Assembly (NCBI GenBank): GCA_037137755.1 | Contig: JBAXJR010000007.1 | Location: forward strand, 1 to 64,000 | Reading direction: 5' to 3' | Origin: Methanomicrobiales archaeon | GTDB taxonomy: Archaea > Halobacteriota > Methanomicrobia > Methanomicrobiales > Methanospirillaceae | Length of the DNA stretch: 64,000 nucleotides | Notes under the pieces: generated by a model | What the model was told of the DNA's origin: nothing | The model's input: the letters and a program-made list of their open reading frames with translations, nothing else | The model's database searches: none | Translations under genes and position numbers: made by a program | In this document: in pieces, positions 1 through 9,314 of the stretch | How the letters are laid out: each line of letters opens with the position of its first letter | Numbering within the stretch: the stretch's first letter is position 1

Positions 1-764
1 CGGGCAGTCTCGAATGCATCCTCGTTTTTTACCCGGATAATCTCATCCACAAGATCTTTTCTGAAGACTCCGGGTATAAAACCCGCACCAATACCCTGGA
101 TACGGTGTGCGCCGGGAGCCCCGCCGGAAAGGACCGGTGAAGCCTCAGGTTCAACCGCAATTGCGCGGAGCGATGGCTTCCTCTTCTTGATCACATCGGC
201 GACACCGGTTATCGTTCCTCCCGTCCCGACTCCTGCTACCAGGATATCGATTTTCCCGTCGGTATCGCGCCATATCTCTTCGGCAGTGGTCTTCCGGTGG
301 ATCTCCGGGTTTGCCTGGTTGTCGAACTGCTGGGGAACAAAATAATAATTCGGGTTCTCTTCTGCCATCTTCGCTGCCGTGGCGACTGCTCCTTTCATTC
401 CTCCGGGACCTGGTGTAAGGACAATCTCTGCACCGAATGCCTTGGCAAGTCTCCGCCGCTCGACGCTGAAGGTCTCAGGCATCACCAGGGTAAACTTGTA
501 TCCCCGGGCTGCACACACGAATGCAAGGGCGATACCGGTGTTACCACTCGTTGCTTCCAGAATGATCGTGTCCTTCTTGATCAGTCCCTTACGCTCGGCA
601 TCATCGATCATCGCAACGCCGATACGGTCCTTAACGCTGCTCAGCGGGTTAAAGGATTCAAGTTTTGCAACCACGGTTGCGCCGCTATCCCTGGTTACAC
701 GGTTCAGCCGCACGAGCGGGGTGTTGCCGATTGTTGCCGTGATATTATCATAGATTTTTGCCAT
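1..764 (-). CDS. cysK: Cysteine synthase A (O-acetylserine sulfhydrylase), 3' end outside window
   Basis: Manual translation from ATG 764: [20 protein letters not shown]...[16 protein letters not shown] (PLP lysine motif)...[12 protein letters not shown]. Absent from the ORF track because it runs off the edge. Confidence 0.95.
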
Positions 765-834: not shown

Positions 835-1459
835 TTGTTAGACCCTGATATATACCTTGGTTTACTGGCCAAATCCAGGCATGTTTGCAATGGCCACATC
901 AGTGAACTACTACACCCGTGGAAAAATGAAAGATAGCGGCAAAATCTGACGCGAAATCAGAGTATATCATACCCTGGAACCCTATATTGTGTGTTCACAG
1001 GAGTGAACAGGAAACAGCCATGAACACACACCATGCGAATATCGCAGGACCCTCAGCTTATCCGGATATTTCCGGAGCCGCTGTCCACACTTTTCCTGGC
1101 ATCCGTCCGGGAAAGCCGGTTGTACGGTCCAGTGGTATCTGGAGCTCCGGGCAGTATTGTAGGCCAACGGAGCTTTCAAGGAACGACCCCCCAGAGACTG
1201 CTGCCCGCAAGTACTGCGGACGATCAGTAGTCCATGGTATGTGTCTGTGAAGATCATACCCCTGGTTACACATCCTCACAACCGTACCGGAGTTGTCATC
1301 CGGCTCACATATTTTCGTCATGAAATATCATCTCATTCAGGGCAGCACGCACCTGCTGTAATCTTGGGAGAAGCAGTAATTCTCCCCGGTATTCCGAAAA
1401 AATAAAACAATCTTTTTATGAAAAATAGTTTATAGAGAAAAAATAATTGAAGAAATGGG

Positions 1460-1533
1460 GCCGGTGTGGCAGAACGGATAAATGCCTTCGCCTGCAAAGC
1501 GAATGTCCGGAGGTTCGACTCCTCCCGCCGGCG
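1460..1533 (+). tRNA. tRNA-Cys(GCA), A37/G73 variant
   Basis: Acceptor GCCGGTG/CGCCGGC, anticodon arm TTCGC-CTGCAAA-GCGAA, T arm GGAGG-TTCGACT-CCTCC; TATA-like TTTATA at ~1429. Confidence 0.88.
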
Positions 1534-1554
1534 TCTAATGAAAGGTGTAAAAGA

Positions 1555-2814
1555 ATGAACTTATACAGCACGTTGTCAAGGATAGTTGAGCCACTTGAGA
1601 CCCTGAACCCGGACAGGGTCTCACTGTTTGTCTGCGGACCGACGGTATACGATTATTCTCACATGGGTCATGCCAGGACGTATGTAGTCTTTGATGTACT
1701 GGTAAAGTACCTCCGGTGGACGGGAAAAGAAGTCTTCTATCTCCAGAATATCACGGATGTGGATGACAAAATTATCAACCGTGCGAATGAGGAAGGTGTG
1801 TCCCAGAGTGTTCTCGCACGAAAGTTTGAAGCTGAATACCTGAGGGACATGCGATCGCTGGGAATAGATGCGGTCAGCTATTACGCCAGGGCAACCACCC
1901 ACATCCCGGAAATTGTTAACCAGGTGGAACGCCTGGTAGCCCTCGGTGTGGCATATGTAACGGAAAGCGGGGTATATTTCAACGTGGATACGTTCGAGCG
2001 CAACGGTGAACTGTCCGGCCAGGATGGAGCAAAACGTGTCAGCCGTGTGAATGACCCCTCAAAACATAACTCCCTCGATTTTGCACTCTGGAAGATCGGC
2101 GAATTCGGGGAGTACACGTGGGACTCTCCGTGGGGCAGGGGACGGCCCGGGTGGCACATCGAAGATACAGCGATATCTGAAAAGTACTTCGGGCAGCAGT
2201 ACGATATCCATGGAGGGGGGCTGGATTTGATTTTCCCTCACCATGAAGCGGAGATCTCCCAGATGGAATCGCTGGAAGGAAAACACCCGATGGTCAGGTA
2301 CTGGTTGCATACGGGGTTCCTGACAGTTAAAGGTGAGAAGATGTCAAAATCTCTTGGGAACTTTATCACCATCAGGGACGCACTCGGGACCTGGAATAAA
2401 GATGTACTAAGATATTTCATTCTCCTGTCCCACTACCGTTCCCCACTCCAGGCCACCGAGGAGGGTATAGCAAATGCGGCCCGGGTTCTTGAACATATCC
2501 GGTCAGTCGCCACAAAGGAAAGAGGTGAGAACCAGGAAGGGAGAAAAGCATTCACAGATGCCATGGACAATGACCTCAATACACCGATGGCTCTCGCGGC
2601 AATACATGCCCTCGCGGCAAGCGGGGATCTCGGGGCTTTGAAACAGTTCGGGGAGATTCTTGGGATTAATTTCCTGCGAGAGGCAAGTGCCCCTTTACAT
2701 GTACTCCAGGATATCCGGGCAGAGCTCCGTGCAAAAAAGCAGTTTGAAGTGGCGGACCTCATCCGGGAACGGATGGTCGCTGCGGGTATCACGATAACCG
2801 ATGCACCCCTGTGA
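1555..2814 (+). CDS. cysS: Cysteine--tRNA ligase (compact archaeal type)
   Basis: VCGPTVYD, HMGH, GRPGWHIEDTAI, HGGGLDLIFPHHEAE, KMSKS; start placed at ATG 1555 (SD AAGGTG) because the longer ORF overlaps the tRNA. Confidence 0.95.
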   Translation: MNLYSTLSRIVEPLETLNPDRVSLFVCGPTVYDYSHMGHARTYVVFDVLVKYLRWTGKEVFYLQNITDVDDKIINRANEEGVSQSVLARKFEAEYLRDMRSLGIDAVSYYARATTHIPEIVNQVERLVALGVAYVTESGVYFNVDTFERNGELSGQDGAKRVSRVNDPSKHNSLDFALWKIGEFGEYTWDSPWGRGRPGWHIEDTAISEKYFGQQYDIHGGGLDLIFPHHEAEISQMESLEGKHPMVRYWLHTGFLTVKGEKMSKSLGNFITIRDALGTWNKDVLRYFILLSHYRSPLQATEEGIANAARVLEHIRSVATKERGENQEGRKAFTDAMDNDLNTPMALAAIHALAASGDLGALKQFGEILGINFLREASAPLHVLQDIRAELRAKKQFEVADLIRERMVAAGITITDAPL

Positions 2815-3016: not shown

Positions 3017-3553
3017 TCAAAGGAGTGTCGGGTTCAGCATCCCGAAGATCATCGCGATGTGGGCAAACACGAGGAACGTAATGAGGAGGCTGATATGGTA
3101 TACCATATGACGTTCGGGAGGTGCGTTCTTTTTAATGATCCCAAGTTCCAGCAGGGCAATCGCAAGCAGGGGCAGGAAACCTGCTATGTAGAATCCGACT
3201 GCGATGACATCAATCGGACCACGCCAGACGATTGTCGGAATAACTGTTATCATAAGATACCCAGCGATCAGGGTAAAATAGATCCCGAGTGAAATTCCGA
3301 TATATCGGTTAACGGTACGCAGGGTGCCCGAATAATCTCGGTTGAACGCGACGAAAAATTCCGTGGCTGTCAGTGCCTCCGCCAGGATCACGGGGATCGC
3401 CATGAATAACAACAGGTTCCATGGCTGGTTGGTCATAAGCAACTGCATATAGTGGGTAACCTGCATCATCGGGTCCATGGCAGTTGCCGCCGTTGTCGCG
3501 GCAGCATGGGCGTGTTCCATCATTGTCGGGGTAACCATCGATTCCATATCCAT
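3017..3553 (-). CDS. DUF6803-like multi-pass membrane protein
   Basis: THYMQLL..NQPWNLLLFMAIPVILAE motif, about 4 TM segments, Met/His-rich N-terminus; SD GGAGA before ATG 3553. Confidence 0.7.
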   Translation of the reverse strand: MDMESMVTPTMMEHAHAAATTAATAMDPMMQVTHYMQLLMTNQPWNLLLFMAIPVILAEALTATEFFVAFNRDYSGTLRTVNRYIGISLGIYFTLIAGYLMITVIPTIVWRGPIDVIAVGFYIAGFLPLLAIALLELGIIKKNAPPERHMVYHISLLITFLVFAHIAMIFGMLNPTLL

Positions 3554-3569
3554 AGTATCTCTCCATTTA

Positions 3570-3583
3570 TTCACAATTGTGAA
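3570..3583. promoter_or_regulatory. Perfect palindromic operator TTCACAATTGTGAA
   Basis: Perfect 14-bp inverted repeat 16 nt upstream of the membrane protein start codon. Confidence 0.8.
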
Positions 3584-3694: not shown

Positions 3695-3997
3695 CTAAGA
3701 AAATTTTTTCCAGAAAGAATTCCGGTATTCAGCCTGGGAATTGTCCTCTTTTAAGTATTTTTCCCCTGGCTGGGGTTTATATTTATCCGGGTCATCCAAA
3801 GCCTTCTGACATTCATCCGATATGCTGAAACAATCTCCATCGCACTGCTTGGCAATTCGGCTCCTGATCTCCCTGACTTTTTCAAGTTTTTCAAGCCTCG
3901 TATTTATGTCATCAATTTTTTTGCCCTGCAGATCTATTGCTGCAAGCAGTTCATTCATTCGTGCAAGGATCTGTTTATCGGTTTCCTGTTCGTTCAT
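3695..3997 (-). CDS. Hypothetical protein, coiled-coil N-half with CDGDC..C motif
   Basis: 100 aa ORF with SD AGGAG and protein-like composition. Confidence 0.65.
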   Translation of the reverse strand: MNEQETDKQILARMNELLAAIDLQGKKIDDINTRLEKLEKVREIRSRIAKQCDGDCFSISDECQKALDDPDKYKPQPGEKYLKEDNSQAEYRNSFWKKFS

Positions 3998-4774: not shown

Positions 4775-4846
4775 GCCAAGGTGGCGGAGTGGCCACGCGG
4801 CTGACTGCAGATCAGCTACACTCCGGTTCAAATCCGGACCTTGGCT
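4775..4846 (+). tRNA. tRNA-Cys(GCA), canonical methanogen G37/U73 type
   Basis: Acceptor GCCAAGG/CCTTGGC+T, anticodon arm GCTGA-CTGCAGA-TCAGC, T arm CCGG-TTCAAAT-CCGG. Confidence 0.95.
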
Positions 4847-4924: not shown

Positions 4925-6289
4925 ATGAGTATCAGAATCCAGAAAACATTTGAAGCGCTCTTCCAGCTCGAAGAAGTCCGGGGACTTTTCCGGGAGTCGC
5001 TACCAACCGGGTTGGATGCTGAAGAGGAAGCCACCTTCAGGAAGCGGATTGCTGATCTTAAGGCAATCGTTGCTGACCTCGAGGCGGGTACCGGCAGTCC
5101 TAAGGTGACAAAGATTGCCGGATCCATAGACTTGCGGACGAGGGAAGAGGAGTACATCAATATCCAGCCGATCCAGGCAGCTGGCCGGTTGACGACGGAG
5201 GCGAGGAAGGCCCTGATCTCCTACGGTGACGGGTACTCAACGTGTGATGCCTGCCGGAAACCATTTCGCCTTGATAAGATTTCCAAGCCGGGTATTGCGG
5301 AATTCCATGCTGATTTGGCAAAGTTTGTCAATATGGACCAGGCCAGGGTTGTTCCCGGTGCACGCCGTGGTTTCCAGGCTGTTGCCAGTACTCTCGTTGA
5401 GAAAGGCGATAGCGTAATTGTATCTGCCCTTGCCCACTATACAGAGTTCCTCTCAGTGGAAAATGCAGGGGGGGTTGTAAAGGAAGTACCACTGAATGAA
5501 AAGAATATCGTAACCGGCGAAGCAACGGCACAGAAGATCGAAGATGTCAAACGGGAGACCGGAAAACTCCCGGTGCTTGTGATGATCGACCACTTCGACT
5601 ACCAGTTCGCAAACGAGCATGAAGTAAAAGAGATCGGAAAAATTGCCCACCAGTACGACATTCCGTTCCTCTATAACGGGGCTTATACAGTTGGTATCCA
5701 GCCTGTTGATGGTAAGGCAATCGGAGCTGACTTTGTTGTCGGCTCCGGACACAAGAGTATGGCATCGGTCGCGCCGTCCGGGGTACTTGCAATGACCGAT
5801 GAATGGGCGCCAAAGGCGCTCCGTACGACCGCGATGGTTGGCGACCTTACCAAGCGTAAATTTGGTATCAAGGAAGTGGAAATGCTCGGGTGCACGCTGA
5901 TGGGCGGCACACTGCTCTCCATGATGGCATCGTTCCCTGCCGTTAAAGCCAGAACCCTGAAATGGGAAGAAGAAGTGAAGAAATCCAACTTCTTCATTGA
6001 CCGTCTTCTCAGGATCAACGGTAGCAGGGTGCTATCAGAGTATCCACGCAAACATACCCTGACAAAAGTTGATACAACCGGAAGCTTCGATACGGTTGCC
6101 CAGACTCACAAACGTCGCGGATTTTACTTCAGCGATGAACTCTCGTCGCGAGGAATTGTCGGTGAGTTTGCAGGTGCAACCAGGACATGGAAGCTGAATA
6201 CCTATGGCCTCAACGAGAAGCAGATCCACTACCTTGCGGATGCCTTCACAGAAATCGCAGAAAAATATGAGATCCCAGTCGCAAAGTGA
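4925..6289 (+). CDS. pscS: Sep-tRNA:Cys-tRNA synthase with N-terminal SepCysE-like domain (SepCysSN)
   Basis: INIQPIQAAGRLT, GDGYSTCDAC, GSGHKS (PLP Lys), LGCT; about 60 aa helical N-terminal extension. Confidence 0.93.
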   Translation: MSIRIQKTFEALFQLEEVRGLFRESLPTGLDAEEEATFRKRIADLKAIVADLEAGTGSPKVTKIAGSIDLRTREEEYINIQPIQAAGRLTTEARKALISYGDGYSTCDACRKPFRLDKISKPGIAEFHADLAKFVNMDQARVVPGARRGFQAVASTLVEKGDSVIVSALAHYTEFLSVENAGGVVKEVPLNEKNIVTGEATAQKIEDVKRETGKLPVLVMIDHFDYQFANEHEVKEIGKIAHQYDIPFLYNGAYTVGIQPVDGKAIGADFVVGSGHKSMASVAPSGVLAMTDEWAPKALRTTAMVGDLTKRKFGIKEVEMLGCTLMGGTLLSMMASFPAVKARTLKWEEEVKKSNFFIDRLLRINGSRVLSEYPRKHTLTKVDTTGSFDTVAQTHKRRGFYFSDELSSRGIVGEFAGATRTWKLNTYGLNEKQIHYLADAFTEIAEKYEIPVAK

Positions 6290-6367: not shown

Positions 6368-7738
<1,371 letters not shown>

Positions 7739-7823: not shown

Positions 7824-9314
7824 ATGATCAAAGGATCAGTAGGACTTGTAAAAACAAAATATTATCACCATTCCTCCCCGCTTGATCTTGAGAGCGGGGA
7901 GACGCTCCCCTCATTTACGCTCGCGTATGAAACATACGGGACCCTGAACAAGGAAGCAAGCAATGCTATTCTGTTATGCCATGCGCTTTCCGGTGATGCT
8001 CACGCAGCTGGTTACCATGCCGGTGAAGATAAGCCGGGATGGTGGGATTCTGTAATCGGCCCCGGAAAAGCGTTTGATACTGGTAAATACTTTGTTATCT
8101 GTTCGAATGTGATCGGCGGGTGTAAAGGTTCAACAGGCCCGTCTTCGGAAAACCCTGAAACCAAGGAACCATACGGAATTTCATTTCCCGTCATAACGAT
8201 AAGGGATATGGTTAATGCCCAGAAACACCTGGTTGACCACCTCGGGATCAACAGGCTTTATGCCATAGCAGGAGGTTCGATGGGTGGCATGCAGGTTCTC
8301 CAGTGGACAGTAATCTGGCCGGACCATGTAAGTAAGGCAATTGTGATCGCATCAACCGCCTACTCAACGCCCCAGCAGATCGCGTTCAACGAAGTGGGAA
8401 GGATTGCCATTACTTCCGACCCTGCATGGGAGAATGGGAATTATTACTCGCAGAAATCATACGATTCCAGCGGCCCGTTCCGTGGCCTCGCACTAGCACG
8501 GATGGTTGGCCATATCACCTACCTTTCAAATGAGTCCATGCATGAAAAGTTTGGCAGGGCATTGCAGGACAAAGACCAGATTGGTTATAATTTCTCGACA
8601 GATTTTGCCGTCGAGAGTTATCTCCATCACCAGGGAGACACCTTCACCCAGCGGTTCGATGCCAACTCGTACCTCTACATCACAAAGGCAGTAGATTACT
8701 TCGACCTGACAAAAGACGGATCGCTCGCAAAAGGGCTTGCAGGAGTACATGGTGCATTCCTCGTCATCTCGGTCTCCTCCGACTGGCTCTATCCCCCATA
8801 CCAGTCACAGGAGATCGTATCAGCATTGGCAGCGAATGACCGGGACGTACGTTACAGCGAGATCCGGTCAAATTTCGGCCATGATGCGTTTCTGCTGGAA
8901 TCAGGCCAGATCAATTACCTGATCTCCCAGTTCCTTTCAAAAACGGTCGTTGGCGATGTCATGATCCGGGACGTCCCGACTATTGAGGAAGGTGCAACAA
9001 CTGCCGTGACTGCCCGGCGGTTAATCAACCTCGAGGTCAATCATCTGCCGGTACTTTCGTGCAGCGGTCAGCTGGTGGGGATTGTTACATCATGGGACAT
9101 CGCAAAAGCAGTAGCGGGAAATTTCCTGTGGCTTGATGAGATCATGTCAAAAAAAGTCATAACTACTGTTCCGGATGAACCGATCGAATCTGCCGCAAAA
9201 AAAATGGAGGAACACTCCATCTCGGCCTTGCCGGTCGTCGATGAAGACCAGCACCTTATCGGTCTCATCACCAGTGATGCACTCAGTATACTTATCGGGA
9301 GGGGTAATTCATGA
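7824..9314 (+). CDS. metX: Homoserine O-acetyltransferase with C-terminal CBS pair
   Basis: [15 protein letters not shown] nucleophile elbow, GHDAFL; tandem CBS domains. Confidence 0.92.

Follow-up and report, generated by a model that had tools for sequence, protein, structure and literature searches.

The DNA analyzed here is a stretch of 64,000 nucleotides (nt), referred to below as the window, comprising positions 1 to 64,000 of the forward strand of contig JBAXJR010000007.1 in assembly GCA_037137755.1 (Methanomicrobiales archaeon; 2.64 Mb, 106 contigs, 90.6% complete). We noted in it a cysteine tRNA gene, tRNA-Cys(GCA), that lies directly upstream of cysS, the gene for a cysteinyl-tRNA synthetase (CysRS), and that carries G at the discriminator position, base 73. 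U73 is treated as a near-universal identity rule for cysteine. This base is also read in the indirect, phosphoserine-based route to Cys-tRNA, by both of its enzymes, SepRS and SepCysS. Where a lineage keeps a G73 tRNA firmly linked to a CysRS of its own, nature has in effect run an experiment on how the discriminator rule of a synthetase can change. The linkage also bears on how two routes to one aminoacyl-tRNA are kept separate within one cell. Of the three tRNA genes that ARAGORN called in the window, a pair are tRNA-Cys(GCA); the second of these is of the canonical type and precedes the gene for SepCysS. The features are collected in Table 1.

Table 1. Features of the window, with two loci outside it, that are discussed in the text
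Feature	Position	Strand	Basis
tRNA-Cys(GCA), 74 nt, 7/5 cloverleaf, G73, A37, T-loop UUCGACU, 5-nt variable loop	1460..1533	+	ARAGORN; Rfam RF00005
Anticodon GCA (1494-1496) and A37 (1497)	1494..1497	+	sequence, ARAGORN, RF00005
Discriminator G73	1533..1533	+	RF00005 alignment; G in 47/47 copies
Spacer, 21 nt, purine-rich, Shine-Dalgarno-like GGTG at 1544-1547, no room for its own promoter	1534..1554	+	sequence
TATA-like box TTTATA, candidate archaeal promoter of a tRNA-cysS transcript, 26-31 nt 5' of the tRNA	1429..1434	+	sequence; putative
cysS, 419-amino-acid CysRS, distinct short clade	1555..2814	+	TIGR00435, PF01406, AF2, Foldseek
N150 codon, CP domain, Y-G-x-L-S motif; Y in 122/129 outgroup CysRS	2002..2004	+	column counts
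Y187 codon, CP domain, G-E-P-x-W motif; P in 108/129 and Y in 0/129 outgroup CysRS	2113..2115	+	column counts
Canonical tRNA-Cys(GCA), U73, G37, G15, A47, A59, 5' of SepCysS	4775..4846	+	ARAGORN; RF00005, 57.3 bits
SepCysS, about 58 extra N-terminal residues	4925..6289	+	NF006810, 632.8 bits; TIGR02539, 394.5 bits, match from residue 59
Third tRNA-Cys, differing from the canonical copy at one base	G000:C60 c[11656,11727] (contig 60)
Methanocellaceae A73 tRNA-Cys/cysS locus	L158 = G264:C9:176500-186000
cysK (cysteine synthase A), oriented away from the tRNA-cysS unit, cut off by the window edge	3..764	-	TIGR01139, 377.3 bits
DUF6803 membrane protein, between cysS and the canonical tRNA	3017-3574	-	PF20617, 203.8 bits
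100-amino-acid frame, no family match, between cysS and the canonical tRNA	3695-3997	-
O-acetylhomoserine sulfhydrylase, 3' of SepCysS	6440-7738		family profile search
Homoserine acetyltransferase with CBS domains (metX)	7824-9314		read from the translation alone

The upstream tRNA gene is recognized without difficulty as a tRNA. The Rfam model RF00005 scored it at 60.2 bits (gathering score, 29; E value, 2e-11), with model positions 1-71 of 71 matched. Its acceptor stem has 7 bp, running from G1-C72 to G7-C66 and including U6-G67, and the RF00005 alignment places G1533 in the discriminator column. The initial annotation, made from the letters alone, had read a G after a 7-bp acceptor stem, an A at position 37, and a cysS start codon (ATG at 1555) 21 nt further on; ARAGORN, RF00005, and the sequence itself bear out each of these. 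Of the canonical tRNA-Cys identity set, the GCA anticodon is thus present and U73 is absent. MiaA was not found in the host genome as assembled, which gives a hint, and only a hint, that A37 of this tRNA is probably not isopentenylated. The TATA-like box upstream of the tRNA was considered as a conserved promoter element and rejected as such, as it is not general among related loci, only a few of which have an A/T box of this kind (between -26 and -35).

The arrangement is not peculiar to the window. Two sets of related loci were compared. The first consists of 26 loci from species-representative genomes whose CysRS is at least 74% identical to the window enzyme, and the second consists of 47 clade loci from named records, of which L107, a fragment from the 3' part of the gene, is untestable. 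A G73 tRNA-Cys was located 14-25 nt 5' of the orthologous cysS in all 26 loci of the first set, where the spacers carry GGAG/GGGAG-like runs, and the same linkage was seen in 46 of the 46 testable loci of the second (the sets share genomes). The pairing remarked upon in the initial annotation is therefore found again in every related locus in which it could be looked for.

Comparison of the tRNA copies revealed strong conservation. G73 was present in 47/47 copies parsed (a count that, like those that follow for 47 copies, includes the window tRNA), and base pairs 1-5:68-72 and the GCA anticodon likewise were invariant; G18G19 and the T-loop were retained throughout. Position 37 is A in 39 copies and G in 8, so the family is not defined by A37. 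The base 3' of G73 was T in 43 copies, C in 3, and G in 1. In an alignment of 26 copies, 23 of them distinct, 94.2% of the stem cells of the distinct sequences were paired, compared with 43.5-59% when the partners were slid against each other. Three stem pairs show changes on both sides, and extra compensated pairs were seen at 6:67 and 7:66 in L097 and L108. Across the region of G1533, independent metagenome contigs (X5 records 5 and 8; X10 record 3) are identical to the window, with no other letter at any position. Taken together, this pattern of conservation indicates a functional tRNA whose acceptor end is strongly constrained. ARAGORN lengthened the stem of some copies by one base per side, giving an 8-bp acceptor stem with U74 as discriminator; this was rejected as a general solution because position -1 is variable, and U, which could pair with G73, is found there mostly in Methanospirillum-type loci only. 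One G73 tRNA copy (L052 / L094) has C in place of U33 in the anticodon loop.

In order to determine whether tRNA and enzyme occur apart, a sample of 251 genomes of the order Methanomicrobiales was surveyed for the short CysRS (cut-off, at least 76% identity) and, independently and at the DNA level, for the G73 tRNA. The two were found in the identical 23 genomes, with one tRNA copy each, and 228 genomes had neither. A different CysRS (33-37% identity) was present in 12 further genomes, and there was a second match of this kind in the carrier G065. No tRNA was seen beside the seven divergent CysRS loci examined (L019 and L059-L064), and no tRNA-Cys was seen in the fetched flanks of 33 more distant named CysRS loci (36-47% identity), two of which have less than 1 kb upstream. 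Carriers are patchily distributed: 5/13 genomes in the genus of the window, 19/70 in its family, and 2/55 (family f5) and 1/20 in two other families; the pair was found in three other families. Named carriers and loci include Methanoregula (among them M. formicica), Methanosphaerula, Methanospirillum (M. lacunae and M. purgamenti), and Methanoculleus palmolei, and the nearest named proteins and loci are from Methanoregula, Methanosphaerula, and records labeled 'Methanomicrobiales archaeon'.

A quick tree of CysRS sequences placed the short enzymes in a single group (Shimodaira-Hasegawa-like approximate likelihood ratio test [SH-aLRT], 100; stem length, 0.93), within which Methanospirillum was nested among Methanoregula sequences and M. 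palmolei fell in the basal polytomy. The simplest reading is that the two genes have been gained, lost, and transferred as one cassette, as would be expected if each needs the other. In the same tree the clade stands beside sequences from the candidate phyla radiation (CPR) and DPANN (SH-aLRT, 93). The next nearest CysRS are at most 54% identical to it, and the few named ones, a mixture of Korarchaeota and Patescibacteria, point to no single donor lineage. Two rows of the tree, L110 and L127, are shortened by frameshifts in their chromosome-scale records. Their cysS translations stop at 281 and 185 amino acids, with matches 1-2 bases out in length; these breaks probably are assembly indels rather than true pseudogenes.

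The cysS product is the sole CysRS in the host genome. It matched TIGR00435 at 416.6 bits (cut-off, 340) over profile positions 1-375 of 466, and PF01406 at 364.4 bits. In a library clustered at 50% identity, its clade formed one cluster (802 bits), and the next relative scored 422 bits at 52% identity. We compared 61 CysRS of this clade with 129 outgroup CysRS. Invariant in the 61 are the H-x-G-H motif (H36-G38-H39), the KMSKS motif (K262-S266), and C27, H229, and E233, the last three of which we take, from the residue identities of the E. coli enzyme, to be zinc-site residues. That D204 marks the loss of a zinc ligand specific to this clade was considered and rejected; Asp also is found at this site in 33/129 outgroup CysRS, with Cys in the other 96. 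An AlphaFold2 (AF2) model, built with an alignment, had a predicted local distance difference test score of 93.1, and a Foldseek search with it returned 8qhp_A (E value, 3.8e-45) and 1u0b_B, the enzyme chain of the E. coli CysRS-tRNA complex (query TM-score [TMq], 0.86). By motif and by model, the enzyme looks active.

The enzyme is shortened at its C-terminal side. Relative to the outgroup, its helical bundle lacks about 34 alignment columns (after residues 326 and 356). The C-terminal strand also is absent: the protein ends about 8 columns early, and a G-x-x-W-K/R motif is present in 27/28 outgroup rows (L135 ends otherwise). The span of the TIGR00435 match had raised the suspicion of a CysRS with no anticodon-binding domain. 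This was rejected, as the motif of the anticodon-contact helix is retained. That motif, R392-x4-F397-x3-D401-x2-R404 in the anticodon-binding domain at the C terminus, is invariant in the clade and aligns with the same motif of 8qhp, 3tqo, and 6ujd. Its spacing is that of residues 427/432/436/439, the anticodon contacts of E. coli CysRS (PMC13449415). Since the motif is invariant and agrees with known CysRS in both spacing and alignment, the short enzyme probably still reads GCA.

Further inspection of the alignment revealed two substitutions, N150 and Y187, that are present in every clade member. Both are inside the insertion between the Rossmann halves, the CP domain, which recognizes the first acceptor base pair (PMC5389517). 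N150 and Y187 may contact nucleotide 73. In an independent lineage, a CysRS from Methanocellaceae (41% identity) has V at site 150 and a changed second motif, and the genome that encodes it has three tRNA-Cys: one with A73, 6.1 kb 5' of cysS on the same strand with genes between, and two with U73 elsewhere. In two other archaeal genomes whose CysRS has Y at site 150, only U73 tRNA-Cys was found. The tRNA-Cys genes of these three distant genomes were located with a purpose-built covariance model, R1; BLAST with the canonical tRNA matched none there.

The host also has a SepRS gene, on another contig. It therefore has a complete phosphoserine route with canonical tRNAs, plus a CysRS led by an odd tRNA. 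Five complete carrier genomes each retain SepRS and a canonical-type tRNA-Cys, and in every case examined the cassette adds to the phosphoserine system and does not replace it. The N-terminal extension of SepCysS (window positions 4925-5098) may be a fused SepCysSN adapter domain as described in PMC5424206. Inside a 5-kb span of the window, then, both routes to Cys-tRNA have an enzyme gene led by its own tRNA. The canonical tRNA is 78 nt 5' of SepCysS in the window and about 14-27 nt 5' of it in L086, L090, L110, and L115. In one complete carrier genome (G016) the canonical tRNA-Cys was matched six times, which is unusually many copies for a single isoacceptor family.

The two kinds of tRNA-Cys differ in bases that are listed as determinants for SepRS. 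CysRS and SepRS have U73 and the anticodon in common as strong elements, and further elements on the SepRS side are G37, A47, A59, and G15 (PMC9976931). The window G73 tRNA has A37, C47, C59, and A15 at these positions. Among 46 G73 tRNAs, A47 and A59 each were found in none, G37 was found in 8, and G15 was found in 21. Canonical tRNA-Cys from the same loci had G15, G37, A47, and U73 in 8/8 cases each and A59 in 6/8. SepCysS likewise reads U73, and a U73G tRNA is bound less well (PMC5688128).

The reading that we favor, and regard as probable, is that tRNA and enzyme form a co-inherited, dedicated CysRS/tRNA pair standing beside the SepRS route. From the anatomy, conservation, co-occurrence, and enzyme features described above we infer a common transcript, its processing, a specificity of charging, and a separation of the tRNA from SepRS, as follows. 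The tRNA would be a working cysteine isoacceptor cotranscribed with cysS. A shared transcript is suggested by the short spacers, by the upstream TTTATA, and by nine loci (L071, L073, L075, L076, L077, L079, L081, L085, and L091) in which a cysK-like gene, an O-acetylhomoserine (OAH)-sulfhydrylase-like gene, the tRNA, and cysS follow one another on the same strand (the cysK-like product is about 45% identical to the window CysK; the sulfhydrylase-like product is about 35-38% identical to its counterpart). RNase P and RNase Z would free the tRNA, which would receive its CCA end after G73, and a 21-nt leader would remain on the cysS mRNA, such that enzyme and substrate would be made together. The short CysRS, with the CP-domain changes N150 and Y187 allowing it to accept G73, would charge the tRNA with free cysteine, and cysK is nearby. 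G73 and the missing A47 and A59 (in the window also the missing G37 and G15) would keep this tRNA out of the SepRS/SepCysS route, which would serve the canonical U73 tRNA-Cys. The cell would have two parallel Cys-tRNA channels for the same codons, the direct one being inherited, and sometimes transferred, as a two-gene cassette.

The initial annotation had proposed, as one alternative, a co-evolved, quasi-orthogonal pair to which SepRS would be blind. The pairing itself is consistent with the strict co-occurrence and adjacency, the CP-domain changes, and the lack of A47 and A59, and the orthogonality is conjectural. If the pair is orthogonal, work on the genetic code would gain a small CysRS/tRNA cassette of natural origin, and there would be a handle on why methanogens keep the phosphoserine route despite direct charging of free cysteine. 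In its fullest form, which we put forward tentatively, orthogonality would be mutual: the short CysRS would need G73 and reject U73 tRNAs, SepRS and SepCysS would reject the G73 tRNA, the switch would reside largely at site 150, and the 1.4-kb cassette would be mobile between methanogen families. Were this so, the cassette would be a self-sufficient second cysteine-coding channel and a natural discriminator-based orthogonal CysRS pair.

Several observations weigh against a dedicated, insulated pair. T-stem pair 51:63 is non-standard in 5 of the 23 distinct tRNA sequences. The SepRS-side differences are not uniform, given the G37 and G15 counts above. Mutation of U73 affects SepRS relatively little in comparison with CysRS (PMC5688128), so G73 alone may not suffice to exclude SepRS, and the missing minor determinants may matter. 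CysRS and SepRS of Methanosarcina and Methanococcus are reported to share tRNAs (PMC8762117), so two routes can coexist without orthogonality. On the enzyme side, two lineages that yielded U73 tRNA-Cys only have V at site 187, which makes this site a weaker marker of the discriminator than site 150. The counts from the two locus sets are not independent events, as the sets have genomes in common and the carriers are close kin. Finally, no charging, expression, end-mapping, or other experimental test of the G73 pair was found in the searchable literature, a search that left the Perona 2018 chapter and supplements outside. The feature comes out of every comparative test as real and functional, and its interpretation, though unproven, is a reasonable one.

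The alternative that survives best is a one-way insulation, which we consider rather unlikely. Here a relaxed short CysRS would charge both G73 and U73 tRNA-Cys, and the G73 tRNA would add a pool that SepRS and SepCysS cannot use. This would suit an enzyme that retains all canonical catalytic and anticodon-reading motifs and in which only two strongly clade-specific substitutions were found, and CysRS and SepRS from M. mazei and its relatives use isoacceptors in common or have no more than a preference among them (PMC8762117, PMC9976931). However, efficient use of U73 tRNAs would leave little reason for the G73 tRNA to be retained in 23/23 carriers and in three other families.

We give little credence to the idea that the tRNA gene is mainly a cis element for cysS, that is, a promoter carrier and an RNase P/Z site that sets the 5' end of the mRNA, with the RNA itself little used in translation. 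The spacer to cysS is short and fixed at 14-25 nt, with no apparent room for a separate promoter, and in the nine loci named above the tRNA lies inside a same-strand run, all of which would be in keeping with such a role. A processing handle nevertheless needs no invariant GCA, invariant G73, G18G19, or T-loop kept in 47 copies, and the changes in the acceptor-side domain of the enzyme point to the tRNA as a substrate. The regulatory or leader tRNA suggested in the initial annotation thus holds to the extent that a processing role in the cysS leader is compatible with the data; it is insufficient to account for the conserved anticodon, loops, and G73.

It is very improbable that Cys-tRNA(G73) feeds a non-ribosomal process, such as a tRNA-dependent synthesis of sulfur compounds, with G73 separating it from the translational pool. 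The unit is located among genes of sulfur amino acid metabolism (cysK, OAH sulfhydrylase, and metX), and a private substrate would likewise agree with the strictness of the enzyme-tRNA pairing. On the other hand, no candidate tRNA-dependent transferase was seen adjoining the tRNA-cysS unit in the window or in related loci, the tRNA shows every general hallmark of an elongator, and the enzyme is the only CysRS of the genome. A sequencing error at G1533 or a decaying tRNA pseudogene, both raised in the initial annotation, can be dismissed, as nothing except the departure from the U73 rule speaks for either, and the invariance of G73, the identical independent contigs, and the compensatory changes that maintain the stems speak against them.

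The phenomenon of a G73 tRNA-Cys and its main interpretation are already in print. A G73 tRNA-Cys in some Methanoregula and Methanospirillum species, together with the idea of orthogonality, was reported by Mukai et al. 2022 (PMC8762117) with reference to Perona et al. 2018. The same paper lists other tRNA-Cys discriminators, namely, C73 in Methanobacterium and A73 in Methanolobus and Methanocella. The window is a further carrier in which SepRS also is present. Relative to the Discussion passages of PMC8762117, which contain neither gene order nor co-occurrence counts, residues, or an experiment, the present analysis adds the adjacency of tRNA and cysS, the 23/23 co-occurrence, N150 and Y187, the lack of A47 and A59, and the shortened enzyme. 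These details may already be recorded in the 2018 chapter or in supplements.

Four other systems invite comparison with the dedicated pair proposed here. The CysRS*/selC* system of Desulfobacterales (Mukai et al. 2017, PMC5389517; PMC7609411) likewise places a dedicated CysRS beside a non-standard tRNA-Cys, and the specificity of CysRS* has been moved by substitutions in the CP domain, at residues reading the acceptor-stem end, which may be compared with the CP-domain changes of the short clade (PMC5389517). In contrast to the window enzyme, which keeps the R/F/D/R motif and is the sole CysRS, CysRS* is a second CysRS without an anticodon-binding domain; the selC* tRNA is of 8/4 type with A1:U72, U73, and often a UCA anticodon, whereas the window tRNA is of 7/5 type with G1:C72, G73, and GCA (PMC5389517). 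Methanosarcina mazei (see Hauenstein and Perona 2008, via PMC8762117 and PMC9976931) resembles the host in having both routes, more than one tRNA-Cys, and a partial division of labor, its CysRS and SepRS favoring different isoacceptors. Its isoacceptors all have U73, however, and the preference resides in the tRNA core, whereas here the discriminator differs and the tRNA is tied to cysS (PMC8762117, PMC9976931). Two PylRS/tRNA-Pyl pairs in one archaeon, with G73 and A73 (PMC9071458; PMC9499178), also serve one amino acid and are separated by the discriminator. They differ from the window pair in enzyme class and amino acid, and their orthogonality is experimental (PMC9071458), whereas that of the window pair is proposed from comparison. 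The second half of the neighborhood, i.e., the canonical tRNA-Cys (4775-4846), the N-extended SepCysS, and the sulfur amino acid genes, matches PMC5424206 (2017), which covers the SepCysS side only.

The surroundings of the cassette vary among related loci. A cysK-like gene was found no more than 3 kb away in 31/47 of them. The DUF6803 gene and the 100-amino-acid frame that separate cysS from the canonical tRNA in the window recur beside the cassette, at 72-90% identity, in L065, L068, and L088.

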